Shown: piece by piece, positions 3,734 through 64,000 of the stretch
Layout: the number at the start of each line of letters is the position of its first letter
Position numbering within the stretch: position 1 is the stretch's first letter
Source: an uncultured delta proteobacterium
GTDB lineage: Bacteria > Desulfobacterota > Desulfobacteria > Desulfobacterales > UBA2156
Direction of reading: 5' to 3'
DNA length: 64,000 nt
Assembly (NCBI GenBank): GCA_963736855.1
Contig: CAVTQK010000006.1
Coordinates: forward strand, 79,328 to 143,327
The notes under the pieces: model-generated
Told to the model about the DNA's origin: nothing
The model's input: the letters and a program-made list of their open reading frames with translations, nothing else
Databases searched by the model: none
Made by a program: the position numbers and the translations under genes

Positions 3734-3754
3734 CAAAAATAGGCGAGGATCACC

Positions 3755-5859: not shown

Positions 5860-5864
5860 AAAGA

Positions 5865-6959: not shown

Positions 6960-7012
6960 AGTATGGTAAGCGCGACGAGTGATGGTATCCGAAAGGACAT
7001 TGACGATTTTCA

Positions 7013-8482: not shown

Positions 8483-8541
8483 ATGCTCGTAAACCATTCC
8501 GGGCCGGGGCCCAACCAAAGCATGGAGATGCGACCCATAAA

Positions 8542-9090: not shown

Positions 9091-9120
9091 TCGTATAAAT
9101 ATTAGGCCGGCATTTCGATC

Positions 9121-9996: not shown

Positions 9997-9999
9997 AAG

Positions 10000-10854: not shown

Positions 10855-10856
10855 AA

Positions 10857-12917
10857 ATGCTAAAAAAGGATTACCCTATGAATGCAACCGTGAACGCCTT
10901 CCTCAATCGACGGCGGCACCTTTTTTGCCTACTGGCATTGACCGTTACCATCTCCCTTGCAGCTCTCTTTGGTGTATTTCACCCGGGGGCTTTGGGTCAA
11001 AATCCTGAAAGCGTGAGTCCCGGGAATGCACAGAAATTAGGCCCCAATCAAAGCGACCAGAGTATTTCCATCGATTTCAACAATGTGGATCTTGCCGTTT
11101 TTATCAAATTTATCAGCGAGCTTTTAGGGAAAAATTTTGTAGTGGACGATCGCGTCAAGGGAAAAGTCACCATCATCTCTCCCAAGAAGGTCTCTATTAA
11201 AGAAGCTTACGATATTTTCGAGTCGGTTCTGGAAGTCTACGGCTACGCCGTCATACCGGCCGGAGAAATCCTCAAAATCGTCCCTTCTCCGGACGCCCGT
11301 ACCAAAAGCATCGAAACCCGGATGAAAGAAGACGCCGATTCCCCCGAAGACCGTGTCGTCACTCAGATCATTCCATTGAAATACGCGGATCCCGAGGAAG
11401 TCAAACGGCTACTTGCCCCATTGATACCGAAAAACAGCGTGATTTTAGCCTACTCCCCGACCAACACCCTGGTGGTCACGGATGTCTACTCCAACATCCG
11501 GCGGTTGATGCGCATCCTGGAAGTCATCGATGTGGCCGGTATCGATCGTGCTGTTTCCGTCATCCCCCTTCAATTTTCCTATGCCGAAAAGATCGTTAAA
11601 CTGATCGAATCCGTTTTCAAAACGTCTCAGCAGCCGCCAAAACCGGTTTCCGATCGTGAAGTAAAGGTCGTTGCCGACGAACGAACGAATTCCATCGTCG
11701 TCATCGCCAGTGAAAGTGATACTCTGAAGATCAAAAGGCTCATCGAGCTTCTCGACAAAGACGTCCCAAAAGGCAAAGAAAAGATCCATATTTATTATTT
11801 GGAAAACGCCGAGGCAGAGGCGCTCGCTAAAGTCCTTCAGGATCTTCCCGCAAAAGAAGAAGCCCCTAAGCCCGGTCAGCCTGCAGTACCGAAAAGGATA
11901 CAACCTTCGGTCACCGAATCTATCACCATCACGCCGGACAAGGCCACTAACAGCCTGATCATTCGCGGAGACGCGGACGACTACAAGTCACTCGAAGAAA
12001 TCATCCAAAAACTCGACATCCCGCGTTCCATGGTCTACATCGAATGCCTTATCATGGAAGTGGACGTAAACAAGGAATTCGAACTGGGAACGGAGTGGAG
12101 CGCGTTCGGAGGCGATCTCCGGGATGACGGATCTTTCCGGGGAGGAGGAGGAGGATTCAGCGGTAGCGGGTTCAACAAAATCCCTCCCATCGACCCGGAC
12201 ACGGGGCTCCCCACCCAGACGCTGCCTTCCGGCTTTTCTCTGGGGATATTCGAAACCATCAAAATCGGAAATGTCTATTTTCCGAACCTGGCCGCCATCG
12301 TGACGGCATACAAAAAAGACAAAGACGTGCATATCCTGTCTACTCCCCAGGTCCTGACCACCGACAATCAGGAAGCCAAGATCACCATCGGGAAAAATAT
12401 CCCTTACCAGACCAAGGAAGGAACCACATCCGCCAACGAGACGTACAGTACTTATGAATACAAGGATGTCGGCATTTCCCTCAAGATCACCCCTTCCATC
12501 AGCAAGGATCGCCTGGTTCGGATGAACATCTCCCAGGAATTTTCTCAACTCGAATCGACCACCGACTTCCGCCCCACCACCCTAAAACGCACCCTCGATA
12601 CCACGGTCATCGTCCATGATAATAATACCGTAGTCATCGGCGGTCTTATCGGGGACGCCTTTTCCAAAACCGAATACCGCGTTCCCTGTCTGGGGGACAT
12701 CCCGGTGGCGGGTTGGCTCTTCAGGTCCTTGGCCAAAGGAGGGGAAAAAACCAACCTCTTTGTTTTTTTGACCCCCCGCGTCATCAATAATGCCGCAGAG
12801 GCCAAGCGCATTTATGAACTCAAAAAAAATGAGTTCGATCGTCTACAGGAAAACCTTTCGAATCCTCGAAAAAAGGAAATGCCGGATGCAGGAAAAGCGA
12901 GGGACAACCGACCGTAA
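10857..12917 (+). CDS. gspD: T2SS outer-membrane secretin GspD
   Basis: 686 aa. N0/N1 domains (IDFNNVDLAVFIKFISELLGKNFVVDDRVKGKVTI) and a secretin C-domain (VIVHDNNTVVIGGLI...VPCLGDIPVAGWLFR). Confidence 0.9.
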   Translation: MLKKDYPMNATVNAFLNRRRHLFCLLALTVTISLAALFGVFHPGALGQNPESVSPGNAQKLGPNQSDQSISIDFNNVDLAVFIKFISELLGKNFVVDDRVKGKVTIISPKKVSIKEAYDIFESVLEVYGYAVIPAGEILKIVPSPDARTKSIETRMKEDADSPEDRVVTQIIPLKYADPEEVKRLLAPLIPKNSVILAYSPTNTLVVTDVYSNIRRLMRILEVIDVAGIDRAVSVIPLQFSYAEKIVKLIESVFKTSQQPPKPVSDREVKVVADERTNSIVVIASESDTLKIKRLIELLDKDVPKGKEKIHIYYLENAEAEALAKVLQDLPAKEEAPKPGQPAVPKRIQPSVTESITITPDKATNSLIIRGDADDYKSLEEIIQKLDIPRSMVYIECLIMEVDVNKEFELGTEWSAFGGDLRDDGSFRGGGGGFSGSGFNKIPPIDPDTGLPTQTLPSGFSLGIFETIKIGNVYFPNLAAIVTAYKKDKDVHILSTPQVLTTDNQEAKITIGKNIPYQTKEGTTSANETYSTYEYKDVGISLKITPSISKDRLVRMNISQEFSQLESTTDFRPTTLKRTLDTTVIVHDNNTVVIGGLIGDAFSKTEYRVPCLGDIPVAGWLFRSLAKGGEKTNLFVFLTPRVINNAAEAKRIYELKKNEFDRLQENLSNPRKKEMPDAGKARDNRP

Positions 12918-12956
12918 GCGCCAACCGGCACGAGGTTTGGGAGGAGAACAAGGGCC

Positions 12957-14717
12957 ATGCAAAACCGCCTGATTGAAGTACTCACCAACCGATTCCAGAT
13001 TCAAGCAGAGGATATCCGGGAGGCATTGACACTTCGGAACCGAAAAGGATCCGGTTTGGGAGATATTCTGATTCAGAAAAAATTGCTTTCTGAAGAAAAA
13101 CTCCTCGAAGCCTTTAGCCTGGTTTACGGTATCCCATATTGGCCGGATCTTCCCATGGAAAATATCTGTTCAGAGTTCACAAAGCGTCTGCCTATCGGTT
13201 TTTTGAAAAAGCATATCATGATCCCACTTTGGGAGCCTGAACCCGCGTTGAATCAAAGTCTATCGTCCGGGCCGAATGGAAAGGCGGAGAAGCCGGATCA
13301 AATTTCCTCACGGAGTTATGTCGTTGCGGTCCGAAGTCTCAACAGTCTCCAGGCGGTGGACGACCTGGTCCGGATCATGGGAATTGAAGATTATCGCCTG
13401 GTCCTTTCCACCAGAGGGGCCATCCTGTCGGCCATCAACATGTCCTTTGAGTTGTGCCGGGATTCGGCGGAGCAAATTGTTCAGGACATGGAGGAAGATG
13501 GGAAAGCGATCCTCAGTGAAATCAAGGACCGGGCCGACCTGTTAGACGACACCAGTGATGCACCGATCGTCAAATTGGTCAACCACATCATCTCTCAGGC
13601 CGTAAAAGCCAGGGCCAGCGACATCCACGTAGAACCGTATCATGACAGCTTCAAAATCCGTTACCGCATCGACGGAATCCTTTACGATACCCTCACCCCG
13701 CCAAAATGGATTCAGCCCGCCCTCATTTCGCGCATTAAAATCATGACTCAGATGAACATCGCCGAAAAGAGACTTCCTCAGGACGGCCGTTTTGACGTGA
13801 AAGTGGGAGACCAGGAGATCGATATCCGGGTATCCACCATTCCCACCGCCTTTGGCGAGCGGGTGGTGTTGCGGCTTCTCAACAAATCAAGCTCCCTGTT
13901 GAAGCTGACCGAAATCGGCCTGGAGGCCGAGCGACTGGCCGAACTGAAAAGCCTGATTCAGAATACCAACGGCGTCATCCTGATCACAGGCCCCACCGGC
14001 AGCGGAAAGACCACCACTCTGTATGCTGTTTTGTCATTTCTTAATACACCGGGCATCAACATCATCACCATCGAAGATCCCGTGGAATACCAAATCAAAG
14101 GGATCAATCAGATTCAGGTCAACCCCAAGATCGATTTGACCTTTGCCCGTGGGCTCCGCCATATTGTGAGGCAGGATCCGGATGTCATTCTCGTGGGGGA
14201 GATCCGAGACTTGGAAACCGCTGAAATCGCCGTCCAGTCGGCCCTTACCGGCCACCTCGTCTTTTCGACCCTTCACACGAACGACTCGGCCAGCGCCATC
14301 ACGCGTCTGGTAGATATCGGTATCGAACCTTTTTTAATATCTTCTTCCGTAAAAGGGGTCGCCGCACAGAGGCTGATCCGGGTTCTGTGTAACGAATGCA
14401 AAGAACCCTACACACCGGACGAAGCAGCGCTTCAGGCCATCGGGATTCCTCCGGATAAAGTCGCCGACGGAGCCATTTATCATTCCGTGGGGTGTCCGAT
14501 CTGCTTTCAAACCGGATATCGGGGCCGCATCGGCATCTTCGAGGTCATGACCATTGACTCGACCCTTTCCAACCTCCTTCTGAAGACTTACGATGCCAAC
14601 CGGATCAAGGCCCAAGCCGTCGAAAAAGGTATGGTGGCCTTACGTGAGGACGGTATCCGCAAGGTCCTGAAAGGAATCACTACCATTGAAGAAGTCCTGC
14701 GGGTTACCCAGAAATAA
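12957..14717 (+). CDS. gspE: T2SS ATPase GspE
   Basis: Walker A GPTGSGKTTTLYA, Asp/His boxes (VRQDPDVILVGEIRDLETAEIAVQSALTGHLVFSTLHTND), and a tetracysteine motif CNEC...CPIC. Confidence 0.9.
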   Translation: MQNRLIEVLTNRFQIQAEDIREALTLRNRKGSGLGDILIQKKLLSEEKLLEAFSLVYGIPYWPDLPMENICSEFTKRLPIGFLKKHIMIPLWEPEPALNQSLSSGPNGKAEKPDQISSRSYVVAVRSLNSLQAVDDLVRIMGIEDYRLVLSTRGAILSAINMSFELCRDSAEQIVQDMEEDGKAILSEIKDRADLLDDTSDAPIVKLVNHIISQAVKARASDIHVEPYHDSFKIRYRIDGILYDTLTPPKWIQPALISRIKIMTQMNIAEKRLPQDGRFDVKVGDQEIDIRVSTIPTAFGERVVLRLLNKSSSLLKLTEIGLEAERLAELKSLIQNTNGVILITGPTGSGKTTTLYAVLSFLNTPGINIITIEDPVEYQIKGINQIQVNPKIDLTFARGLRHIVRQDPDVILVGEIRDLETAEIAVQSALTGHLVFSTLHTNDSASAITRLVDIGIEPFLISSSVKGVAAQRLIRVLCNECKEPYTPDEAALQAIGIPPDKVADGAIYHSVGCPICFQTGYRGRIGIFEVMTIDSTLSNLLLKTYDANRIKAQAVEKGMVALREDGIRKVLKGITTIEEVLRVTQK

Positions 14718-22351: not shown

Positions 22352-22363
22352 AAAAAAAATGAG

Positions 22364-22456
22364 ATCCACCACAGGGGCGGCGAAGCAAGCCTGAGAAGGT
22401 ACCCTTTGAACCTGATCCGGGTAATGCCGGCGTAGGGATGAGATGCGGTGGAGATT
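22364..22456 (+). ncRNA. TPP (THI-box) riboswitch
   Basis: P1 arms tccaccac / gcggtgga enclose GGGGCG...CTGAGAAGGTACCCTTTGAACCTGATCCGGGTAATGCCGGCGTAGGGA, matching the TPP aptamer consensus. It sits directly upstream of thiM-thiE-thiL. Confidence 0.9.
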
Positions 22457-22470
22457 TTCAGAGGGGACCA

Positions 22471-22508
22471 AGGGTTGTTTTTGCCAAAAAAACAACCCTT
22501 TTTTTATT
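22471..22508 (+). terminator. Riboswitch expression platform: intrinsic terminator hairpin plus T-run
   Basis: agggttgttttt-gcc-aaaaaaacaaccct followed by tttttttatt. Confidence 0.7.
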
Positions 22509-22523
22509 CCAAAGGAGATGTCC

Positions 22524-23330
22524 ATGACACATTTTTCCAGCCAGGCTGCTTTAAATCTCCGGATGATTCGGGACACGAGACCGCTGATCCACAACATCAC
22601 CAACTATGTGGTCATGAACTATACAGCCAACGCCCTTTTGTGCGCCGGGGCCTCTCCCGTGATGGCTCATGCCGCGGGAGAGGTGGAAGACATGGTCTCC
22701 CTGTCGAAAGCCCTGGTCCTCAACATCGGGACCCTCACCGATGATTGGGTCGCCTCGATGATCCAGGCTGGAAAGCGTGCCAATGTGTTAAATATACCAG
22801 TGATCCTGGATCCTGTAGGATCGGGGGCCACTGCATTGCGAACCCGTTCGGCCAAGCGGATCCTCGAGCAGACTTCCGTCAAGGTGCTGCGGGGAAACGC
22901 ATCGGAAATTCTGTCACTGAGAAGTGCTGACTCGAAAACCAAGGGCGTCGATTCGATCCATTCCGTTGAAGACGCCGCCGATATAGCCGGGACTCTTGCC
23001 CGGGAATTGAAAACCACCCTGGCCATCACGGGAGCCGTGGACATGGTCACTGACGGAAAACAGAAGGTTCGAGTCGAAAACGGACATCCCCTGATGGGAA
23101 AAGTCACGGGAACCGGATGCACGGCAACGGCAATCATCGGCGCTTTTCTGGCCGTAGACGGCGATCCGGTCATCGCAGCCTCAACCGCCCTGGCCTTTTT
23201 CGGCCTGGCCGGAGAGTACGCCGCTAAAAAAGCTCAATCTCCGGGGAGTTTCATGATCGCACTTCTGGACGCCCTGTATGACATTTCACCCGATGAACTC
23301 GAAAAAGAGTGCCGGATCCGAGAAGCGTAA
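22524..23330 (+). CDS. thiM: Hydroxyethylthiazole kinase
   Basis: LIHNITNYVVMNYTANALLCAGASPVMAHA motif. ORF 22443 extends over the riboswitch; ATG 22524 has GGAG 6 nt upstream. Confidence 0.85.
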   Translation: MTHFSSQAALNLRMIRDTRPLIHNITNYVVMNYTANALLCAGASPVMAHAAGEVEDMVSLSKALVLNIGTLTDDWVASMIQAGKRANVLNIPVILDPVGSGATALRTRSAKRILEQTSVKVLRGNASEILSLRSADSKTKGVDSIHSVEDAADIAGTLARELKTTLAITGAVDMVTDGKQKVRVENGHPLMGKVTGTGCTATAIIGAFLAVDGDPVIAASTALAFFGLAGEYAAKKAQSPGSFMIALLDALYDISPDELEKECRIREA

Positions 23331-23980
23331 TGGAAGATTTTTCAAGACGGATCGATTATTCCCTATACCTCGTTACAGACCGGGGTCTTGCTGGAGGAAA
23401 AAGCACCCTCGAAATCGTCCGGGCCGCGGTGATGGGGGGTGTGACCTGCGTCCAGCTTAGGGAAAAAAAGGGCTCCACCCGGGAATTTGTCGCCGAGGCT
23501 CTTGCTGTTCGCGACCTTTTGAGAAGTCTACATATTCCCCTCATCATTAATGACCGCCTGGACGTGGCCTTGGCGGTTCAAGCCGACGGTCTGCATCTGG
23601 GACAAACGGACATACCCCTTGAATTTGCCCGGCGCATCGTCGGAAGATCCATGATCATCGGCATCTCGGCTGAATCCGTAAATGATGCCGTCGAGGCGGA
23701 AAAGGGCGGGGCGGATTATATCAGCGTCAGCCCCGTCTTCTCGACCCCGACAAAGACCGACACCGCACCTCCCCTCGGACTGGAAGGACTTAAAAAAATC
23801 CGGGGACGGGTTGCACCCCCCTTGGTGGCCATCGGCGGGCTGAACCGGGAAAATATCGAAGCGGTCATCCGGAATGGGGCAGACGGGGTAGCCGTGGTAT
23901 CATCCATTGTCTGCGCACAAGATCCCATGCAGGAGGCACAAGAATTGAAACGTCTCATTCAAAAGGCCAGATCCACTTGA
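23330..23980 (+). CDS. thiE: Thiamine-phosphate synthase
   Basis: YLVTDR...VQLREK...GADYISVSPVFSTPTK motifs. ATG 23330 overlaps the thiM stop (TAATG); ORF-track start 23309 is the alternative. Confidence 0.85.
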   Translation: MEDFSRRIDYSLYLVTDRGLAGGKSTLEIVRAAVMGGVTCVQLREKKGSTREFVAEALAVRDLLRSLHIPLIINDRLDVALAVQADGLHLGQTDIPLEFARRIVGRSMIIGISAESVNDAVEAEKGGADYISVSPVFSTPTKTDTAPPLGLEGLKKIRGRVAPPLVAIGGLNRENIEAVIRNGADGVAVVSSIVCAQDPMQEAQELKRLIQKARST

Positions 23981-24981
23981 AACTTAAAGAGATCGGTGAG
24001 TTCGGATGGATCGACCGGATTCGCGGAGGATGCCTGATCCGCGAGGACACAATCCTGAAAGGAATCGGGGACGATGCAGCCGTTTTCTTCACCCGGCCTG
24101 ACATGGCCACACTGGTCACGACCGACTTGCTGGTGGAACGCGTCCATTTCCTGAAAAACGCCACTTCGGCATTCAACTTGGGATATAAGGCCATGGCCAT
24201 GAATTTAAGCGATATCGCAGCTATGGGAGGAGAGCCGAGAGAGGCTTTTGTCAGCATCGGGATCCCCCAAGATTGCTCCATTGAGTTCTTGGACGAACTC
24301 TACGAAGGGATGAAGCATCTTGCCGCCGAACACCGGGTGAACATACTCGGCGGGGATACCACAGGCTCTAAAACCGATCTCATCATCAATATCACGGTGG
24401 TCGGAACGATACCCCCTTCCGAGGTTCTTTATCGTCATGCCGCACAACCCGGAGACGCGATCCTGTCCACTGGATTTTTAGGGAACAGCCGGGCAGGACT
24501 TCACATTATCCTGGAAGGGATCCCGATAGATGCCCCCTTTCTCCAAGAGCTCGTGGATGCCCACCTGAAGCCCCGGCCCTACGTGCTCGAAGCAAGATTC
24601 CTGGCAAGTCTGGGAGGGGTCCATGCAGCAATTGATGTCAGCGACGGCCTGAGCTCGGATCTGGGCCATATCCTCAAGTCAAGCAGCGTAGGCGCGCAAT
24701 TGGTAGCCCAAAAGATCCCCATCTCCGAAAACCTGAAACGATTCTGCGCGAGATTCAGCCGGGATCCATTGGAATACGCTCTCTCCGGCGGTGAAGACTA
24801 CACCCTTTTGATCACGGTGTCTCCCGACAGGGAAAAAACGGTCCGCGAGGCTTATAAGAAAACCTTTGAAACCCCCTTATTCCCGATCGGCTGGATCAAC
24901 GATTCCCGAAAGCTGGAGATGGTGAGCACCTCGGGGGCCTTGAATAAGGTAACGGCGTCCGGATGGGATCACTTCAAGTGA
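23977..24981 (+). CDS. thiL: Thiamine-monophosphate kinase
   Basis: MKLKEIGEFGWIDRI...GIGDDAAV N-terminus, an AIR-synthase-like fold, and an ATGA overlap with thiE. Confidence 0.85.
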   Translation: MKLKEIGEFGWIDRIRGGCLIREDTILKGIGDDAAVFFTRPDMATLVTTDLLVERVHFLKNATSAFNLGYKAMAMNLSDIAAMGGEPREAFVSIGIPQDCSIEFLDELYEGMKHLAAEHRVNILGGDTTGSKTDLIINITVVGTIPPSEVLYRHAAQPGDAILSTGFLGNSRAGLHIILEGIPIDAPFLQELVDAHLKPRPYVLEARFLASLGGVHAAIDVSDGLSSDLGHILKSSSVGAQLVAQKIPISENLKRFCARFSRDPLEYALSGGEDYTLLITVSPDREKTVREAYKKTFETPLFPIGWINDSRKLEMVSTSGALNKVTASGWDHFK

Positions 24982-26746: not shown

Positions 26747-29068
26747 TTAAGCAGGGACGTCCCTGATTTCGATTCCCATGGACCGAAGCCGGTCCCGGAT
26801 TCGGTCCGCAGCGTCCCAGTCTCCGGCGTTACGGGCTGCTTCCCTGCTTTTGATGAGGGCAATGATCTCCGGGTTTGGTGTGCTGTCCTGAAACCGGAAA
26901 ATGTTTAAAACCCTGTCGATATCCTGAAATGCGCGGATAATCTTTTCAGCTCCCTTATCATCAATTTTTCTTTGCCGGATGTCGATGTTGATCTTTCTGA
27001 TATTATTAAAAAGCGACGCCAATGCCTCAGGCATATTTAAATCGTCATCCATGGCCGAAAGGAATCCATGCTTGATGTCATAAAGGAGTTGATCCACCTC
27101 GGGGTCCGGGGCTCCCCCTTTGATCTGCCGGAGGGAATGAATACAAGCGTCGATCCGTCTCAAAACACGTCTGGCTTCTTCCAGCCGATCCTGCGAAAAA
27201 GCCAGCGGCTTTCGATAATGATTGGAAAGAAGCCAATATCGAATTTCGCGGCCGGAGAACCCCTTATCAAACAGATCCTTAAGGGTCACTCCGCCTTGCT
27301 TTTTTTCCTTTTCTGCAGCGTTGAACAGGACCCGCTCACAGTGAATCCAGTAATTGGCCATGGGGTGCCCGGTCAAGGCCACGGAAATGGCGATGTGATT
27401 TTCATGGTGGGGAAAAACCAGCTCCCGACCGCTGGTATGAATATCGTACCGATCCCCCATGGACTTCCTGGCTATTGCCGCACACTGAAGGTGCCACGAC
27501 GGACGAACATTCCCCCACTCGGTCTTAACGAAAATCCCGCGTTTGAGTTCGGAAAGTCTCGACCGTTTCATGAGGGTGAAATCCCTGGGATTGTCCTTTT
27601 CGTATTCATCCAGATCCACCGTAGCCCCGAGCTTGATTTTATTGATATCGATTCCGGACAGTTTTCCGTAATCCGGGATCCGGGAAATATTAAAATAAAG
27701 GGATCTCAGCTTTTCATAGGCAAACCCGCTCTTCTTGAGGTCACGGGCCATCTGAACCATATCTTGGAGATTTCCGCTTGTCCGGGGATAGCTGTCCGCC
27801 GGCCGGACGCCCAGGGATTCAAGGTCCTTTTGAAACCATTGAATGTGCTCATCCGTAAACTCGGGAAGGGAGATATTGGCCGATTCCGATCCTGCCAGGG
27901 TTTTGTCGTCGAAGTCGGTGATGTTTACGATATGACGCACCGCATACCCCCGGTATCCGAGGTACCGGCAAAGCAGATCGGAAAATACGAATCGGCGGCA
28001 TTCTTCGATTTGCATTCGGGCATGTGCGGTGGGACCGCAGGTATAGAGCGAGGCCTTACCGGGAATCAGGGGCTTAAAGATCTCCTCTTTCCGGCTCATT
28101 GTGTTAAAGAGCCTCAAGTCCACCTTTTCTTTTATTGCAAAGAGAGTCGTGCTGAGATACCTTTCCCCGCCGTCCGGAAGGATTACCACCATGACACCCT
28201 TTTCCATGAGAGCGGCTTCCCTGCAAGCAATTGCCATGGCCGCGCCGCTGCTCATCCCTGCAAAAATCCCCTCTTCTTTGGCCAGCCGTCGGGTCATCTC
28301 GAAAGCTTCTTCATCCTCGACGTTGATCTTTTTATCCAGGCGATTCTTATCGAAGATTTCAGGCTGGTAAGCCTCTTTCATGTTCTTAAGCCCCTGGATT
28401 TTATGACCCAGGTAAGGCTCCACACCGATAATCTGGACGGCCGGATTGTATTCCTTCAGCCGCCTCGAGATCCCCATAAGGGTGCCTGATGTCCCCAGGG
28501 TCGCCACCACAGCGGTAACCGCTCCATGGGTCTGGCGCCAGATCTCTTCGGCAGTTCCATGGTAATGGGCTTGCCAGTTGGCATCGTTGTTATACTGATC
28601 CGGCATGAAATAAAAATTCGGATTCTCCCGGGACATCCGATAAACTTCCTCGATGGCGCCGTCGGTTCCTAAGTGTCCCGGGGTCAGAAGGATCTCCGCC
28701 CCCCGAGCCTTAAGGATTTTTCTTCGCTCTTCACTCACCGCTTCCGACATGGCCAAGAGGAGGTGGTATCCCTTCACTGTACATACCAATGCCAGGCCGA
28801 TTCCCGTGTTACCGCTGGTGGCTTCGATGACCGTTTTGTCGGGCTTCAAAAGGCCGCAATGTTCCCCGGCTTCAATCATGGAAAGCGCAGGGCGATCTTT
28901 CACCGATCCGCCCGGATTAAACGATTCCAGTTTCGCCAATAGCCTCACCCTCGGGTTGGGGTTTAACCGCCGAATCTCCACTATAGGGGTGTTGCCGATG
29001 GCATCAAGGATGGACTGGTTCATTCGTGCTGGATCCTCAAATTCGGCCAGAGCCTGCACGCATGCCAT
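26747..29068 (-). CDS. Fusion protein: PLP-dependent cysteine synthase (CysK/CysM-like) N-domain plus cysteinyl-tRNA-synthetase-like C-domain with degenerate class-I motifs
   Basis: Residues 1-310 carry NTPIVE, GGSVKDRPA (PLP Lys), TSGNTGIGLA and ILPDGGERYLST. From about residue 318, LRLFNTMSRKEEIFKP...LYTCGP...NITDFDDK...WHLQCAAIA...FPHHENHIA aligns to CysRS. However, HIGH is replaced by MQIE and KMSKS by KEKKQ. Confidence 0.8.
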   Translation of the reverse strand: MACVQALAEFEDPARMNQSILDAIGNTPIVEIRRLNPNPRVRLLAKLESFNPGGSVKDRPALSMIEAGEHCGLLKPDKTVIEATSGNTGIGLALVCTVKGYHLLLAMSEAVSEERRKILKARGAEILLTPGHLGTDGAIEEVYRMSRENPNFYFMPDQYNNDANWQAHYHGTAEEIWRQTHGAVTAVVATLGTSGTLMGISRRLKEYNPAVQIIGVEPYLGHKIQGLKNMKEAYQPEIFDKNRLDKKINVEDEEAFEMTRRLAKEEGIFAGMSSGAAMAIACREAALMEKGVMVVILPDGGERYLSTTLFAIKEKVDLRLFNTMSRKEEIFKPLIPGKASLYTCGPTAHARMQIEECRRFVFSDLLCRYLGYRGYAVRHIVNITDFDDKTLAGSESANISLPEFTDEHIQWFQKDLESLGVRPADSYPRTSGNLQDMVQMARDLKKSGFAYEKLRSLYFNISRIPDYGKLSGIDINKIKLGATVDLDEYEKDNPRDFTLMKRSRLSELKRGIFVKTEWGNVRPSWHLQCAAIARKSMGDRYDIHTSGRELVFPHHENHIAISVALTGHPMANYWIHCERVLFNAAEKEKKQGGVTLKDLFDKGFSGREIRYWLLSNHYRKPLAFSQDRLEEARRVLRRIDACIHSLRQIKGGAPDPEVDQLLYDIKHGFLSAMDDDLNMPEALASLFNNIRKINIDIRQRKIDDKGAEKIIRAFQDIDRVLNIFRFQDSTPNPEIIALIKSREAARNAGDWDAADRIRDRLRSMGIEIRDVPA

Positions 29069-54600: not shown

Positions 54601-55527
54601 TTAATTCACTTTAGGGCGAGGCAAAACTTTGGCCATTTCGGCGATTTCCGGGACCTTATGCTCCCACTCAATGGCCATAAGGTGCACGCCAGCCACCCCT
54701 TTCAATTCCTTAAACTCTTCGATCTGCTCCACGGCCATCTTGATTCCTTCCTCCCCCTGTTTTTTCTTGTCCACCCCCTGCAGGCGGCTGATGATCTCGT
54801 CAGGAACGTCCATCCCGGGAACCTTGTTCTTCATATACTTGGCCATGCCGATACTTTTCATGGGAGTGACCCCCGCCAGGATATAGGCTTTTTCCGTCAA
54901 CCCCATGTCGTTGGCTTGTTTGATGAATTCCCGGAATTTATTCATGTTGTAGATGCATTGGGTCTGAATGAAATCGACGCCGGCGGCGACCTTTTTGGCC
55001 AAACGATGCACCCGCCATTCAAAAGGATCGGCGAAGGGGTTCGCAGCTGCTCCGATAAACATTTTTGGAGCCCCGTCCAGATCGGCGCCGCTTAGGAATT
55101 TCCCCTCGTCCCGCATCTTTTTGACCGTAGCGATCAGCTGTATGGAGTCGATATCAAAAACTCCTTTGGCCTGAGGGTGATCCCCGAATTTGCAGTGGTC
55201 TCCGGACAGACATAAAATATTACGTATGCCGTGCGCGTAGGCACCCAGGATGTCCGACTGCATGGCAAGGCGATTCCGGTCCCGGCACACCATCTGGTAG
55301 TTGGGTTCGATTCCATCCTGGATTAAAAAAATGCAGGAAGCCCAGCTTGACATTCGGACCATTGCGGTCTGGTTATCCGTGATGTTGACCGAATCGACAT
55401 TCCCCTTCAAGAAAGCGGCCTTTTTTCGCACTTCTTCGGCGTTTGCACCCCTGGGTGGGCCCAATTCGCCGGTGAATGCAAAATGCCCTGCCCTTAAAAC
55501 CTTTTCCAAATTGCTTCCTGATTTCAT
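54601..55527 (-). CDS. metF: Methylenetetrahydrofolate reductase (acetogen/SRB-type MetF)
   Basis: MKSGSNLEKVLRAGHFAFTGELGPPRG...VNITDNQTAMVRMSS is typical of MTHFR. It is paired with the small GPCGG protein upstream. Confidence 0.8.
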   Translation of the reverse strand: MKSGSNLEKVLRAGHFAFTGELGPPRGANAEEVRKKAAFLKGNVDSVNITDNQTAMVRMSSWASCIFLIQDGIEPNYQMVCRDRNRLAMQSDILGAYAHGIRNILCLSGDHCKFGDHPQAKGVFDIDSIQLIATVKKMRDEGKFLSGADLDGAPKMFIGAAANPFADPFEWRVHRLAKKVAAGVDFIQTQCIYNMNKFREFIKQANDMGLTEKAYILAGVTPMKSIGMAKYMKNKVPGMDVPDEIISRLQGVDKKKQGEEGIKMAVEQIEEFKELKGVAGVHLMAIEWEHKVPEIAEMAKVLPRPKVN

Positions 55528-55581
55528 GGTCGTCTTTCCCTGCTATATTCCATGTTTAACGATATAAATCCCTGCCGAACA

Positions 55582-55815
55582 CTACTTCTTCTGCCCGGCG
55601 TTATCGGGTTTCGAGTATCCCGGTTGGACCAGGGTTCGAGGTCCGATGTCCTGCCAGTCATTGGCGGGATGCACCTTCATCATCAGATCGAGGCGCCCCT
55701 GCCTGGAAAGACGCTCAAAAATCATAAACCAGGCACAAGGCTGATCCGGATTGATTTCGCAGCTCCCTTTGTTGGTACCTCCGCAGGGACCGTTATACAA
55801 TCCCTTGGCGCACAT
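55582..55815 (-). CDS. metV: MTHFR C-terminal-domain zinc-ribbon protein (MetV-like)
   Basis: MCAKGLYNGPCGGTNKGSCEINPDQPCAWF signature, with the start at ATG 55815. The ORF-track extension to 55944 runs into IS-derived DNA. Confidence 0.65.
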   Translation of the reverse strand: MCAKGLYNGPCGGTNKGSCEINPDQPCAWFMIFERLSRQGRLDLMMKVHPANDWQDIGPRTLVQPGYSKPDNAGQKK

Positions 55816-55946
55816 GGTGTTATCACGGTCACACACTTCCAGGTAGTATATAATCTTTTGTGTAAATTTTAAAAAAGGGTAAAAAAAGGGCGCTTTTTCT
55901 TTAAAAGGGTTTTGGCAAAAAACACCATAAGAAAGGAAAAGCACCC

Positions 55947-56095: not shown

Positions 56096-56973
56096 ATGCA
56101 AATGAATCTGCAGCTGCATCACGTCGTCAGCGATATTACAGGTGCCACGGGAATGAAAATCATTCGTTCAATCATTGCGGGAGAACGTTCCGCCAAAAAG
56201 CTTGCCTCCTACCGAGACGTGCGCTGCAAAAAGTCCGAGCAGACTATCTCCGATGTACTAACCGGCAACTATCGTCCAGAGCACGTTTTTGCCCTTAAAC
56301 AAGCTGTTTCGCTATATGATTTCTATCAGGGGCAGATTGCCGAGTGTGATAAAGAAATTGAAGCGATGTTATCAAAGCTGAAAACTGAAAAGCCTGCACC
56401 GAACCAGACCCTTCCCAAGGCGCGTCACCGGACCAAGCAGAAAAACGAGCCTGATTTTGCCCTTCGCCAGTCGCTTTACATGTTGGTTGAAGTGGATCTG
56501 ACTAAAAAAACGGAATCGGTGCATACACGGCCTTGCGTCTTATTGCCGAATGCGACAACGATATGGGCAAATGGCCGACATTAAAGCATTTTGCATCGTG
56601 GCTCTGCCTATCACCCGGCAATAAAATATCCGGCGGCAAGGTGCTGGCGAGCAACAAGCGTAAAACCAAGAGCAGGGCAGCAACACTTTTTCGAATAGCT
56701 GCGGTGAATGTCGGAAAAACCCAGACCGCTTTAGGTGCATTTTATCAACGTTTATCCACCAGAATCGGCAAGGCAAAAGCCGTCACTTCCACGGCCAGAA
56801 AGCTTGCCGTCTTGTTTTACAATGTGATGCGGTACGGAACATCATTTGTTGAAACCGGTTCTGATTATTACGAAAAACAGTATATAAAAAAAGTTCTGCA
56901 AAACCTGTCCCGTCGAGCAAAAGATCTGTGCTTCGAATTGATAAAGATGAAGGGACATGCTGCTGCTCCGTGA
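56096..56973 (+). mobile_element. IS110-family transposase pseudogene: 5'-truncated (catalytic DEDD domain missing) and frameshifted
   Basis: NLQLHHVVSDITGATGMKIIRSIIAGE... then NGIGAYTALRLIAECDNDMGKWPTLKHFASWLCLSPGNKISGGK...ARKLAVLFYNVMRYG (Transposase_20 region). The frame changes inside the A7 run at 56504-56510. Confidence 0.8.
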
Positions 56974-57925
56974 ATGTTTCTTAGGAAAGCCACCGCGTAC
57001 TTTGCCAAGGAGTCGCTGCACGGCATGCGGTGATGGAGGAGATGCGACTCGACTATCCGTTGGGGTGTTGTGCCGGGTATTTGGGGTATCGGCCAGCGGA
57101 TTTCATGCCAGGCGCAGCCGTGGGCCTTCTCGGAGGGCGCGGGAAGAGGGACAGTTGGAAACTGAGATCCGGGCCGCCCACAAGCGTACGCGGGAGACCT
57201 ACGGTCCGGAGCGTTTGCAGCGGGATCTGGCGGCTCACGGAGTGCATATCGGGGTACATCGGATTAAGCGCATTCGTCGCAATCTTGGCCTGCGGTGCAG
57301 GCAGAAGCGAAAATTCAAGGTTACCACCGACTCTCGGCACAGTCTGCCGGTGGCCGACAATCTGTTGAACCAGCGGTTCCAGGCCGAGGCACCCTCCCGG
57401 GCGTGGCTGAGTGACATGACTTATATTCCCACCGATGAGGGGTGGCTTTACCTGGTCGGCCACAAGGACTTGTGCACCCGCAAGATCGTCGGCCATGCCA
57501 TGGGCGAGCGCATGACTCGGAATCTTGTGATCGAGTCGCTGCTGCGGGCTGTGGAGACCACAGGATCCTGTACCGGTCTGCTTCATCACTCGGACAAGGG
57601 GAACCAGTACTGCTCTCACGAATACCGAAAGATGCTCGATTGCCTCGGGATGACGGTCTCGATGAGCGGAACCGGGAACTGTTACGACAATGCCCCTATG
57701 GAGAGCTTCTGGGCAACGCTTAAGACCGAGTTGATCTTTCATCGACGTTTCGCTACCCGACTCCAGGCCATTCGGGAAATAACCGAATACATTGAAGTGT
57801 TCTACAATAGACACAGAATTCAGAAAAAGCTGGACTATTTTTCACCAGCGGCATTCGAACACCGATTCTATGAACAGCGGTTAGCAGCATGATAAATTGG
57901 TGTCCACTATTGACGACCGATACCA
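56974..57925 (+). mobile_element. IS3-family element remnant: last ~17 codons of orfA plus DDE orfB, 5'-truncated, with an extra frame break
   Basis: orfA tail LRKATAYFAKESLHGMR*. orfB has D (WLSDMTYIP), D (HHSDKGNQY) and E (YDNAPMESFWATLKTE). The N-terminal EEMRLDYP is in a different frame from VGVLCRVFGVSASG (break near 57059). The right end, near 57925, is a guess. Confidence 0.8.
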
Positions 57926-58154
57926 AGATATGGAATTCTTCAAACTTAAAAATTTTCGCGCTCCACGAGGCAAAGTAAGCTTTAGTCGGATGAACCGAAA
58001 TTTCACTTGACAGTGCATATTTCTCCACGATATCAAAAATTTGTAAGCCTTGACAACTGCAGGTTCCCATATCTTGGGGTGCAGATGATGCCAAAATATA
58101 TTCCATGCCCGCACTTAATCCGCCCAAAAAAAAGCGAGTTGTTATCAATTTTTC

Positions 58155-58184
58155 TTGACTTATGGAGGCGTATTGATTGAGAAT
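58155..58184 (+). promoter_or_regulatory. Sigma70-like promoter candidate upstream of the hdrA-like gene
   Basis: TTGACT (58155-58160), an 18-nt spacer, then GAGAAT (58179-58184). Confidence 0.25.
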
Positions 58185-58297
58185 TAAAACTTATGTTATC
58201 TGGTTTGCTGTCAGGGTGTTGATCAAGCCAATCGACGCCCAAATGAATAAGGATATTGATGTTAACCGCCTTAAGATTAATTTTTAAAGGAGTTTTA

Positions 58298-61200
58298 CAT
58301 GACCACTAAAGTTCATGGATCTGTAATGGTAGTAGGCGGCGGAATCGCTGGAATGCAATCCGCCCTGGATCTCGCCAATTCTGGATACTATGTGTATCTT
58401 GTTGAAAAGTCCGCAGCCGTCGGAGGGTTGATGTCCCAGATTGACAAGACCTTCCCCACAAACGACTGCGCCATGTGAATTATCTCACCCAAACTGGTCG
58501 AGGTCGGCCGGCACCTCAATATTGAACTCATTACAACAGCAGAATTAATTGATTTGCAAGGCGAACCTGGGCGGTTCAGCGCTCGGATTCGCCAGGAACC
58601 CCGCTTCGTAGACCTGTTAAAGTGTACAAGCTGCGGGGAATGTGCTAAAGTTTGCCCAGTGTCACTCCCCAACGAATATGATGAAAACCTCTCCCAAAAG
58701 CACGCCGCTTACAAACAATATGCCCAGGCTATTCCGGGAGCTTATGCGATCCAAAAGGCGGATAAAGCGCCTTGCCGTTTAGCCTGCCCTGCTGGTTTGA
58801 ATGTTCAGGGATATGTCCAGATGGTTGGCCAGGGTAAATACAAGGAAGCTCTGGAAATCATCATGGAAGATCTTCCCCTGCCCGGAGTACTCGGCAGGAT
58901 TTGCCCTCATGGGTGCGAAGAAGCTTGCAGGCGGTGTCAAGTTGATGAGCCGGTTTCTATTCGTAATCTTAAGCGCCTTGCAGCAGATCAATTTGATCCG
59001 CGCAAAATAGAAATCAAATGCTTGCCAAGAAGGGAAGAAAAGGTTGCAATCATTGGATCGGGTCCGGCAGGACTTTCAGCAGCTTATCAATTGGCTCGAA
59101 AAGGAATCCTTTCGACAATTTTTGAAGCACAGCCAAAACCAGGTGGAATGTTGAGATTGGGTATCCCCGATCATCGTCTGCCTATCGAAGTTCTGGATAG
59201 AGAAATAGAAGTCATTACCAATCTGGGTGTAGAAATTAAAACCAATTCACCTCTCGGACCGGACTTGACCGTTGATGACCTTTTTAAGAAGGGCTATAAA
59301 GCGGTTTACTTGGCAATAGGCGCCCATAAAGGGATTGAACTGGGTATCCCTGGTGAAAAAGCAAAAGGCGTCCGCCAGGGCGTTGAATTTTTACGTGAAG
59401 TAAACCTTGCAGGCAAAACAACAGTTGGCAAAAAAGTTGCTGTTATCGGAGGCGGAAATGTTGCCATAGATGTTTCCCGCGCAGCAGTTCGATTAGGTGC
59501 GGAGAAGGTGATGATCATCTATCGCCGGACAAGAGCCGAAATGCCTGCCTGGGAAGAGGAAATTCAAGCGGCGGAATCAGAAGGCGTTGAAATTACATAC
59601 CTTTCAGCACCTCAGGAAATTCTTATTGAGGATGGCAAAATCGTTGGGGTGCGCTGCATCCGGATGGAACTTACAGAACCGGATTCTTCAGGACGAAGAA
59701 GACCTGTGCCGGTTCCCAGATCGGAATACGACATTGAAATCGACCAGATTATCCCTGCAATCGGTCAACGTGCGGACCTGAGTTCTATCGAAGATGTTCC
59801 GGATTTGAAATTTACACGGTGGGGAACAGTTGAAGTTGATCCCATCACTTATGCAACAGGAAAAGAAGGTGTATTTGCAGGCGGTGATCTGCAAAGCGGT
59901 CCATGGATCGCAATCGGAGCAATTGCTACCGGGAAGGAAGCTGCCGAATCCATTTTCAGATTCATAGAGGGTCGTGACATGGCAGAAGGAAGGGAAGCCA
60001 TTACCAATGAAAATCCTGTTTACCAACCCATTCCTGAAAATGAGCCTCGTAAAGCCAGGGCAAAAATGCCGCATCTTCTTTTAGAAGAGCGGAAAGACAG
60101 CTTTAAAGAAGTTGAAATGGGGTTTGATGAGACTTCGGGAAAAGAAGAAGCCAAACGATGTTTGAATTGCGGTTATTGTTGTGAGTGTTTTCAGTGTGTG
60201 GGCGCATGTCTTGCAGGCGCTATCGATCATAGCCAGGTTCCGGTGGAAAGAACCATTGATGTCGGTAGCGTAATTCTTTCACCCGGAACTGAAGTCTTTG
60301 ATCCTTCAAAGATGGATGAATTTTACCATTATAAAACAAATCCCAATGTCATGACGGCATTAGAATTTGAACGTATTTTAAGCGCTTCCGGACCAACCAT
60401 GGGACATCTGGTTCGACCCTCGGATCACAAAGAACCGAAGAGAATCGCATGGCTTCAATGTATCGGTTCAAGGGATACCAACAGATGCGGAAACAGTTAT
60501 TGTTCTTCTGTTTGTTGCACCTATGCAGTCAAAGAGGCGATGATCGCCAAAGAACATTCCCACGGCGATCTGGATTGCGCTGTATTCTATATGGATATCC
60601 GGACATTCGGAAAAGATTATGAAAAATATTATAACCGTGCTCGTCATAAAAACGGTGTTCGGTTTGTTAAAGCCAGAGTTCATACCATTAACGAGGAGCG
60701 GGACAATAAAAATTTAATCATCCGATATGCAGATGAGACCGGTCAAATTCAGGAAGAAATTTTTGACATGGTGGTTCTGTCGGTTGGGTTGGAAGTACCC
60801 AAGTCAACAATTGAATTGGCAAAACGGCTCAACATTGAACTCAATCCCCATAATTTTGCTGTAACTCCGACATTTGCCCCGGTTGAAACCACAAGACCCG
60901 GCGTTTATGCTTCCGGTATCTTCCAGGGACCAAAGGATATTCCGAGTTCGGTTACTGAAGCAAGTGCTGCGGCGTGCGCTGCGGGCACATTCATTGCCGA
61001 AGGTCGCGATACGCTAACTAAAAAAGTCGAAGTTCCTGAAGAAATTGATGTTGCAAATAAGGAACCGCGGGTAGGTGTTTTTGTTTGTAACTGCGGCATA
61101 AATATTGCGGGTGTTCTGGATTGTAATGCATTGGTGGAGTATGCCAAGAGCCTTCCTAATGTGGCTTTTGCCAAGCAAAACCTCTTTACCTGCTCCCAGG

Positions 61201-62729
61201 ACTCTCAGGAGATAATGAAGAAAGATATCGAGGAGAACAATCTTAACCGTGTAGTGGTGGCTGCATGCACCCCTAAAACCCATGAAGCCATTTTTATGAG
61301 CACGATGGAAAGTATCGGTTTAAATAAGTACCTCTTTGAAATGGCTAACATCCGCAATCAGGATTCCTGGGTTCATGCAAATAATCCGGATCTCGGCACG
61401 AAAAAAGCGAAAGAATTGATTCGCATGTCGGTGTCTAGAGCTGCCAGTTTAAATCCCCTCAAAGAAAAAGTAATCCCAGTAACCAAGCGGGCGCTTGTCA
61501 TCGGAGGCGGGATTGCCGGTATGAATGCCGCGCTTGGGATTGCACAACAGGGGTATGATGTCGCTCTTGTGGAAAAGGAAAAAGAACTCGGTGGAATGGC
61601 AAGAAATCTTTTTCATACCATTGAAGGAGATGACATCCAGGCATACCTCAAAAAATTGATCGGAGAAGTGAAAAACAAATCCAAAATCAAAGTATATACG
61701 GACGCCCGTATTACTGAATTTAAGGGCTTTAAAGGAAATTTCGTCACAACAGTCACGGTTGGAGGAGAAAAACAGGAAATTAAGCACGGCATAATTATTA
61801 TCTCAACCGGAGCTAAAGAATATCGACCCAAGGAATTCCATTATGGAGAAGATCCACGCGTTGTTACTCAGTTGGAACTGGGCAAACGATTGGAGGAAAA
61901 GGGTGCTTCAGATATTTCAACAGCGGTCATGATTCAATGTGTTGGTTCTCGGAATGAAGAAAATGAAAATTGCTCTCGTATCTGTTGCCAGAATGCAATA
62001 AAGAATGCTTTGACAATTAAAAAAACAAACCCGGATTGTCAGATTTTTGTGCTTTACCGGGATATGAGAACTTACGGATTTTTGGAAGATTATTACCTAG
62101 AAGCCAGAAATCGCGGCGTCATATTTATTCGTTTTGAGCAGGAAGAACCACCGGTCGTCAGTAGCTCATCCGAAGGTCTTGTTGTACGAGTGAAGGATCA
62201 TGTGTTGCAGAGAGACATAGAGATTTCAGCAGATATTCTAGCGCTGAGCGCAGGCGTAGTTGCAGCGGATACCGATGAACTCAGCGGCATCATGAAACTG
62301 AATCGAAGCCCTGAAGGCTTTTTTATAGAAGCCCATGTGAAACTCAGACCTGTGGACATGCCCAGCGAGGGTATTTTCCTCTGCGGTACTGCCCATTCGC
62401 CGAAACTGATATCTGAAACCATTGCCCAAGCGCAAGCAGCCGCTTCTCGGGCGATGACATTCCTTGCCAAGTCAGAACTCAAGCTTTCTGCAATCACAGC
62501 TAAAGTTGATACGGATCATTGTGTGAAGTGTTTAACATGTGTTCGTTCATGCCCATTTGGCGTGCCAGTGTTTAATGAAAAGGAAAAGGTTATTGAAATT
62601 GATGAGGCGCTCTGTCATGGGTGTGGCATTTGTGCGTGTGTTTGTCCGAGGGAAACAATACAACTCAGTTACTATGAGGATGATCAAATAACCAGTAAAA
62701 TTGACGCATTGTTGGCGGAGGGGATGTAA
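58298..62729 (+). CDS. Giant HdrA-GltD-HdrA fusion flavo-iron-sulfur protein (HdrL-type) with a TGA (Sec candidate) at 58476 and a +1 frame break at 58440-58442
   Basis: AAGGAG plus ATG 58298 encodes [17 protein letters not shown]. After a 1-nt shift the frame reads [22 protein letters not shown], then continues as ORF 58554..62729. That ORF contains a GltD/NfnB-like module ([51 protein letters not shown]) and HdrA Cys clusters ([15 protein letters not shown]). It also has a second HdrA module ([27 protein letters not shown]) and a C-terminal 2x[4Fe-4S] region ([24 protein letters not shown]). Confidence 0.75.
58494..58511 (+). promoter_or_regulatory. Candidate SECIS hairpin for TGA 58476
   Basis: CUGGUCG-AGGU-CGGCCGG (7 bp including 2 G-U pairs), starting 15 nt after the TGA. 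Folded by hand only. Confidence 0.35.
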
Positions 62730-63152
62730 TGGCAGAATTTGAACCTAAAATTATTGCATTTTGCTGTGACTATTGAGGATATTCAGCCGCGGACCTGGCA
62801 GGTTCCATGCGACTGGAATATCCAACGAACGTCAAAATAATCCGGGTGCCTTGTACCGGAAAAGTTGATGTCATGCACCTTCTAAGGGCGATTCAAAAGG
62901 GCGCAGATGGCGTTTATTGCGTGGGCTGTTTGGAAGGGGCTTGTCATTATAACGCAGGTAACCTGAGAGCCCGGGAGCGTGTTGAATATGTAAAAAAACT
63001 TCTCAGAAGAGGTAGGGTTGGAGGGTGATAGGGTCAGGATGTATAATCTGACATCGGGTGAAGGTCCAACTTTTGCTGCATATGCAAAAGAAATGACCGA
63101 AAATATCAAAGCGCTGGGACCCAATCCATTAAAGAAATACACAACAACCTAA
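62729..63152 (+). CDS. mvhD: MvhD-like (methyl-viologen-reducing hydrogenase delta subunit family) protein with a TGA (Sec candidate) at 62774 and a +1 frame break near the A7 run at 62992-62998
   Basis: ATG overlaps the hdrA-like stop (TAATG). Reads [49 protein letters not shown]...GADGVYCVGCLEGACHY...EYVKK, then in the next frame EEVGLEGDRVRMYNLTSGEGPTFAAYAKEMTENIKALGPNP. The MvhD consensus is FCCNWCSYAGADLAG. Confidence 0.7.
62788..62811 (+). promoter_or_regulatory. Candidate SECIS hairpin for TGA 62774
   Basis: CGC-GGACC-UGGCA-GGU(U)CC-AU-GCG, with a bulged U, starting 11 nt after the TGA. Folded by hand only. Confidence 0.4.
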
Positions 63153-63157
63153 ATAAT

Positions 63158-64000
63158 ATGGGATCAACTATGGCACAGAAAGAAGTCATTAAAATCGGGG
63201 GAAAGAAGAAGAGCAAGTTCTTGGACAAAGTCAGGGAGATCCTTCCTGAAGAAGGACACCTGAACATGTGTCTGACGTGTGGGCTCTGTTCCTCGGGATG
63301 CCCTGCGACAGGGTTGGAAGGGCTTGATCCGAGGAAAGTGCTTCGCATGGCTGCTCTTGGAATGGATGAAGAATTGTTAAGCACTACAATGGGCATGGAT
63401 GTGCAGTATGTGCTGGCGATGTATGGTCGCATGCCCTATGAAAATCGATATCCCACAATTGGTCTTTAATATGCGGAAAAGCTGGCCTAGTAGAAACTCG
63501 ACCCAAAGGCATATTAGGTTCATGTGATATGGCGTTAAGAAGCGATACGTGTAGCGCCATGGGAGCGACTGAAGAAGATTTTGAATTTGTTGTCAATGAT
63601 GTGCTGGAAGAATATCGGGAAGGACAACCTGAACTTGCAGAAATGCAGGCTCCCATCAACAAGCAGGGTGCAGAATTTTTCTTGAATCAGAATTCAAGAG
63701 AGCCGGTTACAGAACCCGACGAAATGGTTCCGCTATGGAAAATCCTTCATCTGGTTGGCGCAGATTGGACATATGGAACCAAAGGCTGGGCTGCGGAAAA
63801 CTATTGTTTATTCATAGCAGATGACGAGGGCTGGAAGCATATTGTCCAGGTCAAAGCAAAAGCGGTAGATGATCTGGGCTGTAAAGTCTGGCTCAATACG
63901 GAGTGAGGGCACGAACTATTTGCAGTCCGGGCTGGACTGAAAAAATTCAACATTCCTTACAAGTTTGAAATCAAAAGCATCATTCAATATTATGCGCAAT
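63158..64000 (+). CDS. HdrD/DsrK/GlpC-family Fe-S oxidoreductase (partial, runs off the window), two frame breaks and a TGA (Sec candidate) at 63904
   Basis: The first CxxCxxCxxxCP motif (CLTCGLCSSGCP) is in frame 63158. The second (CSMCWRCMVACP) is in the +1 frame from about 63381. The remainder (VETRPKGILGSCDMALRS...DDLGCKVWLNTE-TGA-GHELFAV...) is in a further +1 frame from about 63480. The frame stays open for 31 codons after the TGA to the window end. Confidence 0.5.
63919..63942 (+). promoter_or_regulatory. Candidate SECIS hairpin for TGA 63904
   Basis: UUU-G-CAGUCC-GGGCU-GGACUG-AAA, with a perfect 6-bp core stem, starting 12-16 nt after the TGA. Folded by hand only. Confidence 0.4.

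Follow-up and report, generated by a model that had tools for sequence, protein, structure and literature searches.

The last kilobases of a 64,000-nt stretch of contig CAVTQK010000006.1 (assembly GCA_963736855.1, uncultured delta proteobacterium; hereafter the window, meaning this whole stretch) carry a gene of the MvhD/FlpD family, mvhD, with an in-frame TGA at its sixteenth codon. Does this TGA end a short frame ahead of the gene, or is it read as an amino acid inside it? The comparisons reported below indicate that codon 16 is very probably decoded as selenocysteine (Sec, U), with a selenocysteine insertion sequence (SECIS) hairpin downstream, and that MvhD would be the adaptor of a three-gene selenoprotein module. 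We put the probability of this reading at roughly 0.93. The features on which it depends are as follows.

62729..63152, + strand: mvhD (FlpD/PF02662), 140 codons after repair, predicted Sec at codon 16, one-base insertion near 63004/63005
62717..62723, + strand: ribosome-binding site GGAGGGG, read from the sequence, 5 nt ahead of ATG 62729
62774..62776, + strand: UGA, the putative selenocysteine codon, in the motif C-D-Y-U, i.e. CxxU
62777..62823, + strand: whole SECIS-like stem-loop, 47 nt, the lower stem conserved only in the closest clade
62789..62805, + strand: candidate SECIS core GCGGACCUGGCAGGUUC, with the apical hairpin GGACCU-GGC-AGGUUC at 62791-62805
63004..63005, + strand: extra base causing a +1 frame break in mvhD, window CTTCTCAGAAGAG against CTN CTN GAR GAR in relatives

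The mvhD frame and the codon at position 16

The ATG of mvhD at 62729 shares bases with the stop codon (TAA) of the gene ahead of it (gtaATGg). From it the frame runs through 15 codons to the TGA at 62774-62776, continues as GYSAADLAGSMRLEYP and enters the open reading frame (ORF) listed at 62807..63028. Taken alone, this listed ORF matched the Pfam FlpD profile with 90.6 bits over profile positions 21-87 (curated cutoff, 22.3 bits). When the 26 residues upstream were added, with Cys put at the TGA, the match was 124.1 bits over positions 1-87, and the frame-repaired MvhD, again with Cys at the TGA, gave 157.6 bits over the entire profile (1-123 of 123). Six solved MvhD/VhuD chains in the PDB matched the window protein with E values of 1e-37 to 1e-40, and the repaired protein was 79-90% identical to its closest homologs. 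The conserved Cys set of the family is present as C13, U16, C42, C67 and C72, of which C42, C67 and C72 are invariant across the aligned homologs and positions 13 and 16 are kept in every full-length and Sec-form sequence. The gene also adjoins that of an HdrA-type flavoprotein (1476 aa, HdrL type), and this adjacency recurs in relatives. By its sequence, the window protein is a full member of the MvhD/FlpD family.

A search of 5.8 billion proteins, from which the best 120 homologs were considered, revealed a bimodal distribution of lengths. The closest homologs (82-90% identical) were nearly all ~114 aa long and started at the Met that follows the TGA (Met27); about three quarters of the 120 had this form. 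More distant homologs (64-69% identical) were ~141 aa long and had Cys at the TGA column (FCCxYC[AG]YAAADLAG). ORF finders and most database entries begin the protein at Met27 because the UGA is taken as a stop.

We therefore read the codon from DNA, in 80 related loci of named genomes. These were mostly metagenome-assembled genomes of Desulfobacterales/Thermodesulfobacteriota, the remainder including Desulfonema magnum 4be13 and Desulfopila aestuarii DSM 18488. The motif was found in 77 loci, of which 75, those of the two named species among them, had TGA at the Sec column and two had TGC; a further six Cys-form loci had TGC or TGT at the same column. Both sides of the codon were conserved in frame across the 77 loci, with FEPxIIAFCCx[YF] upstream and GY[ST]AADLAGSMRL downstream, the peptide kept 3' of the TGA in relatives being GYSAADLAGSMRL, and the flanking peptides showed synonymous variation. 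The solved structures agree with the DNA: at precisely the TGA column, chain 9sfi_K, the best PDB match, shows X, a non-standard residue (FVCYQXGYGAADLAG), and the aligned MvhD chains 9sw2_D and 7bkb_F have Cys there.

A sequence-only reading made earlier had proposed an MvhD homolog that starts at ATG 62729 over the upstream stop and has a TGA (62774-62776) in place of a family Cys. Start and TGA read as it had claimed, and alignment to the FlpD family and to the MvhD/VhuD chains bears out the assignment. The check for which it had called, of Cys against TGA at this codon in relatives, came out as given above, and the frame upstream of 62807 proved to be conserved in all relatives (FEPxIIAFCCxY). 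Its continuation into ORF 62807..63028 stands as to the frame, which does run in; what had gone unnoticed is that this ORF ends early, by the one-base insertion near 63004/63005.

A hairpin downstream of the UGA

Bacteria insert Sec through the complex SelB-GTP-Sec-tRNASec, which attaches to an apical mini-hairpin some 11 nt past the UGA; fdhF of E. coli is an example. Folding 62774-62835 by minimum free energy gave a 47-nt stem-loop of -21 kcal/mol (z = -2.8 or -2.45 in two runs), and 2 of 200 shuffled sequences were as stable. The apical hairpin of this stem-loop is separated from the UGA by 14 nt, or by 11 nt if the three-pair CGC/GCG extension is counted, and has the loop GGC. The hairpin that the sequence-only reading had placed at 62788-62811 thus exists, as the upper part of the 47-nt stem-loop (CGC/GCG plus GGACCU-GGC-AGGUUC); the single bulged U ascribed to it does not, and a 3-nt bulge (CAU) was found on the 3' side instead.

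The hairpin is conserved at the level of nucleotides. The 15 nt GCGGACCTGGCAGGT (62789-62803) were identical in 76 of 76 TGA-bearing genes, namely the window gene and the 75 loci, and the 17-nt GCGGACCTGGCAGGTTC held in 73 of them. The motif GGACCUGGCAGGUUC, the presumed SECIS apical element, contains synonymous sites. In the 76 Sec-form genes, third-position entropy was 0 at five consecutive codons, +5 to +9 (GCG GAC CTG GCA GGT), and 0.8-2.0 bits at the flanking third positions. Eight Cys-form genes (five of them distinct) varied at all five sites, with GCG/GCT/GCA, GAC/GAT, CTG/CTC, GCA/GCC and GGT/GGC/GGG. Because the encoded AADLAG peptide is identical in the Sec-form and Cys-form groups, the additional constraint is one on the RNA, present only where the codon is UGA. 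Five synonymous sites that are frozen in Sec forms and variable in Cys forms therefore point to a bacterial SECIS.

Pairing data are consistent with this. The apical helix was 99.3% paired over the 76 sequences. In the closest clade (28 sequences) the lower stem was paired in 91.9% of cells, compared with 27-44% when the partner strand was slid, and columns 6/48, which pair the third base of a Gly codon with that of a Tyr codon, covaried (AU 12, GC 8, GU 7, broken 1). The prediction step thus returned a SECIS-type hairpin under RNA-level constraint.

Several observations weigh against a decoded selenocysteine and were set against this evidence. The lower stem is less well conserved beyond the closest clade (75.8% paired). 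Rfam, at gathering and at permissive thresholds, gave no SECIS or other relevant family at the hairpin, as is expected for gene-specific bacterial SECIS elements. One metagenomic relative (P0001/L081, positions 2676-2678) has AGA (Arg) at the Sec codon with the SECIS core intact; we rejected Arg as an alternative state of the column, AGA being one base from TGA and a lone variant or error. Translated as sequenced, mvhD would yield a protein of 99 aa whose tail is wrong. No selA, selB or selD was found in the 64-kb window by NCBIfam scans of 40 window ORFs, in which ThiL matched the SelD model weakly and below cutoff, and ARAGORN found no tRNA in the window, hence no tRNA-Sec. Incorporation of selenium into this MvhD is a prediction. 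The Sec machinery of this organism is presumed; related Desulfobacteraceae carry it (PMC2702500, PMC5109826).

Neighbouring genes and the state of this copy

The genes around mvhD, and the remnants upstream of them, are listed below.

58299..62729, + strand: HdrL-type hdrA (HdrA with a GltD-like Fer4_20/Pyr_redox_2 insert), putative Sec-TGA 58476-58478, hairpin 58494-58511
63170..64000, + strand, running past the window end: hdrD-like gene (HdrC/HdrB fusion with Fer4 and CCG domains), putative Sec-TGA 63904-63906, hairpin 63923-63939
54601..55944, - strand: metF (intact) and the 3' half of metV, inverted with respect to the order in relatives
56096..57892, + strand: insertion sequence (IS) fragments lying between hdrL and the metV fragment, namely the C-terminal part of an IS110-like element and an ORF for an IS3-type integrase

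Like mvhD, both of its neighbours have an in-frame TGA. The TGA at NDCAM-U-IISPKL divides hdrL into two listed ORFs, 58299..58478 and 58554..62729; this codon is TGA in 52 relatives and TGY in nine, and the hairpin core AAaCTGGTCGAGGTCGGCCGgCA is frozen downstream of it. The TGA of the hdrD-like gene, at LNTE-U-GHELF, is TGA in 35 relatives and TGC in one, and its hairpin is also conserved.

In relatives the genes lie colinear in the order hdrL-mvhD-hdrD-metV-metF. In the window, hdrL, mvhD and hdrD are co-oriented, and the sole metV/metF seen is inverted and lies upstream, behind the IS fragments. Here metF matches PF02219 over the full profile and the metV fragment matches PF12225 at positions 39-95 only; the IS110-like fragment is itself frame-broken. 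The region from 58000 to 64000, which holds hdrL-mvhD-hdrD and adjoins the IS fragments, has a G+C content of 0.44-0.47 against ~0.51, and its GC skew (+0.08 to +0.17) is unlike that of the rest.

Near 63004/63005 the window reads CTTCTC-A-GAAGAG, and relatives read ...KKLL-EEVGLEGDRVRMYNL; with the extra base removed, mvhD encodes 140 aa and ends at 63152. Programmed +1 frameshifting at 63005 was considered and rejected, the extra base being present in no relative. The hdrD-like gene has two +1 breaks, at ~63388 and at 63477-63492, one of them possibly in an A4 run, and an unrelated subtilase gene (724-2428) has one at ~1466. Each of these four single-base insertions is compatible with an extra A. 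Family-invariant residues are all retained past every break, and the 4.4-kb hdrL beside mvhD has no frame break; for these reasons the breaks are either sequencing/assembly artefacts or very recent mutations. We looked for an independent copy of the frameshift. An exact look-up of the truncated 73-aa ORF returned no record, and two metagenome scans with the window sequence, one of which allowed one or two bases at the suspect site, returned 0 matches.

The explanation that competes best concerns this copy and not its codon. The gene may be a recently inactivated Sec-MvhD pseudogene, in which the insertions in mvhD (one) and hdrD (two) are real and followed an IS-mediated disruption of the operon that truncated metV and inverted metF-metV'. 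Three +1 breaks inside 500 bp speak for decay, as do the metV fragment, which has lost its N-terminal half and abuts the IS fragments, and the uninterrupted hdrL-mvhD-hdrD-metV-metF of relatives. However, the residues retained downstream of all breaks would make any decay very recent, the adjacent hdrL is unbroken, and a similar break found 60 kb off, in the subtilase gene, hints at an artefact of sequencing or assembly. Since the window ends inside hdrD, metV in its truncated form may also be part of a different paralogous cluster. We regard inactivation as possible but unlikely.

Three further explanations deny that the TGA encodes selenocysteine, and all were rejected on comparative data and stop-codon usage. 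The TGA might be an ordinary stop, the gene starting at Met27 (ATG 62807) behind an untranslated leader that includes the 15 upstream codons. Gene callers do give ~114-aa products for most close relatives, and the ORF list of the window likewise begins at 62807. Against this, 76 genes keep the peptide encoded by the 15 codons while varying at synonymous sites, and these codons supply FlpD positions 1-20 including the CC..C/U cysteines of all solved MvhD structures; moreover, Met27 is internal in the Cys-form homologs, and there is no RBS-like need for a start at Met27. An ordinary stop is thus highly improbable. Still less credible is a sequencing error or a mutation of TGC/TGT (Cys) confined to the window: apparent single-base errors do occur elsewhere in it, but the same TGA stands in 75 independent assemblies, with a hairpin core frozen only in the TGA forms. 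Nothing beyond the in-frame TGA itself favours an equally implausible reading of UGA as a sense codon (Trp or Gly) in place of Sec. TGA terminates 14 of the 33 confident genes in the window, and the code is for that reason taken as standard; the residue in homologs is Cys and not Trp or Gly, and in-frame TGAs occur only at Cys columns, with hairpins after them.

Other features of the window lie apart from this locus. A 773-aa ORF at 26747-29068 on the - strand joins a cysteine synthase (CysK/CysM-like, residues 20-310) and a complete cysteinyl-tRNA synthetase (318-771) through a 7-aa linker; it is either a real fusion or the product of a lost stop codon. The only Rfam match in the window is a thiamine pyrophosphate (TPP) riboswitch at 22363-22456 (RF00059, 61.6 bits), directly upstream of thiM-thiE-thiL (22443-24981). 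At 2504-14717 lies a complete gene cluster for type II secretion (gspF, G, K, L, N, C, D, E), which includes the delta-proteobacterial GspC variant NF041515.

Proposed function and comparison with known systems

By analogy with known bacterial Sec insertion, the apical hairpin would act as a SECIS and bring SelB to a ribosome that has paused on the UGA. MvhD itself, with ~140 aa and a [2Fe-2S] cluster, would be an adaptor that transfers electrons and docks onto flavoproteins of the HdrA type, and hdrL(Sec)-mvhD(Sec)-hdrD(Sec) would form a three-gene selenoprotein module. Together with the metV-metF of relatives, the module may constitute an electron-bifurcating methylene-tetrahydrofolate reductase or oxidase of the Moorella MetFV-HdrABC-MvhD type, serving the Wood-Ljungdahl pathway. 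In it the GltD-like module built into HdrL would bind NADH, and MvhD could shuttle single electrons between the clusters of HdrL and the bifurcating FAD.

The selenol beside the [2Fe-2S] cluster is probably a redox-active partner (as a selenenylsulfide) and not a simple ligand, to judge from the literature. Here the present view departs from the sequence-only reading, in which the TGA had been aligned with a cluster-ligand Cys. The equivalent Cys of methanogenic MvhD lies near the [2Fe-2S] cluster and forms a redox disulfide, and Sec19 is found there in BamF (bioRxiv 10.64898/2026.04.10.717634, 2026 preprint). On the [2Fe-2S] ligands of MvhD, the literature yielded an indirect statement only. 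We advance, as a speculation that we hold to be doubtful, that the Sec of MvhD is not a cluster ligand but one of three selenols (HdrL U60, MvhD U16 and the Sec in LNTEUGH of the HdrD-like protein) in a selenium-based thiol/selenol relay. In complete-oxidising sulfate reducers, such a relay would let an NADH-dependent methylene-tetrahydrofolate reductase/oxidase of the HdrL type convert the one-electron chemistry of its Fe-S centres into two-electron chemistry, and the window copy would be in early decay after an IS-mediated break-up of the operon. If true, this would be a form of the MetFV-Hdr complex still to be characterised biochemically.

The value of the locus lies in annotation. Gene calling has truncated or split the ORFs of mvhD, of both its neighbours and of most of their homologs in databases, and Sec-form MvhD is systematically mis-annotated in public protein sets as N-terminally truncated. 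Any reconstruction of how Desulfobacterales run the Wood-Ljungdahl pathway and electron bifurcation requires correct gene models. The frozen 15-nt core of the putative SECIS, GCGGACCUGGCAGGU, is simple and highly specific, and could serve as a marker for re-annotating Sec-mvhD genes.

Like the SECIS of E. coli fdhF, the window element is a stem-loop inside the coding region with guanines in its apical loop and a conserved upper hairpin; measured from the CGC extension, this hairpin begins 11 nt past the UGA. It differs in its loop, which is GGC/UGGCA in the window and GGUC... in fdhF, and no single bulged U was identified in the window element.

The archaeal VhuD-type chain 9sfi_K ('F420-non-reducing hydrogenase subunit delta') matched residues 5-135 of the window protein with an E value of 1.5e-40, and its C-Y-Q-X corresponds to C-D-Y-U of the window. 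It has a second X at the column of Cys67, where the window has Cys, and in archaea it pairs with a [NiFeSe] hydrogenase or Fdh and not with MetVF. Archaeal Sec genes also carry the SECIS in the 3'-UTR (untranslated region) and not as an in-frame hairpin. The methanogen MvhD chains (5odc_D, 7bkb_F and 9sw2_D; E ~1e-37 to 1e-40) share the fold family, the length and the PCTG/GC..G.CH motifs with the window protein. They have Cys and not Sec at the column (CCNWCSYGGAD in 9sw2_D), and they belong to the H2-dependent MvhADG-HdrABC complex.

BamF of Geobacter metallireducens, from the class II benzoyl-CoA reductase, is a bacterial adaptor homologous to MvhD that has an N-terminal Sec19 by the [2Fe-2S] cluster and a Sec-containing HdrA-like partner, BamE (bioRxiv 10.64898/2026.04.10.717634). 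Its Sec19 would be equivalent to U16 of the window, judging by motif and position. BamF is more than 100 aa longer, has extra domains and serves aromatic ring reduction.

A further parallel is the MetFV-HdrABC-MvhD methylene-tetrahydrofolate reductase of Moorella thermoacetica (PMC5861303, PMC5736913); relatives of the window locus have hdrA-type, mvhD, hdrCB-type, metV and metF genes in one cluster. The present module differs from that complex in its large HdrL-type HdrA with a built-in GltD-like NAD(P)H module, in the fusion of HdrC and HdrB (HdrD-like) and in its three predicted Sec subunits; in the window itself, metV is moreover truncated and inverted.

The closest known systems are those of the Desulfobacteraceae. 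D. autotrophicum HRM2 has Sec-containing mvhD1, mvhD2, mvhD3, mvhD5, hdrA1/2, hdrL1/3 and hdrD4, together with selA, selB, selC and selD (PMC2702500), and in D. multivorans mvhD is split by a UGA upstream of a SECIS (dmul_C28840/50; PMC5109826). A 2026 review treats MvhD/VhuD (PF02662) as a selenoprotein family with the motif CxxU and up to two Sec residues (PMC13188914). Sec-MvhD beside Sec-HdrA, HdrL or HdrD has been published for Desulfobacterium autotrophicum and Desulfococcus multivorans, along with Geobacter BamF and Methanococcus VhuD. Since Sec-MvhD, Sec-HdrA/HdrL and Sec-HdrD are published selenoprotein families, Sec-MvhD is already known, in Desulfobacteraceae since 2009, and the window locus is a further instance in the expected lineage. 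Compared by published description, the Desulfobacteraceae proteins share with it the family, the lineage, the association with Sec-HdrA/HdrL and HdrD, and a UGA followed by a SECIS that splits the annotated gene. There is no difference in kind; the window copy adds a one-base insertion and a rearranged metVF neighbourhood.

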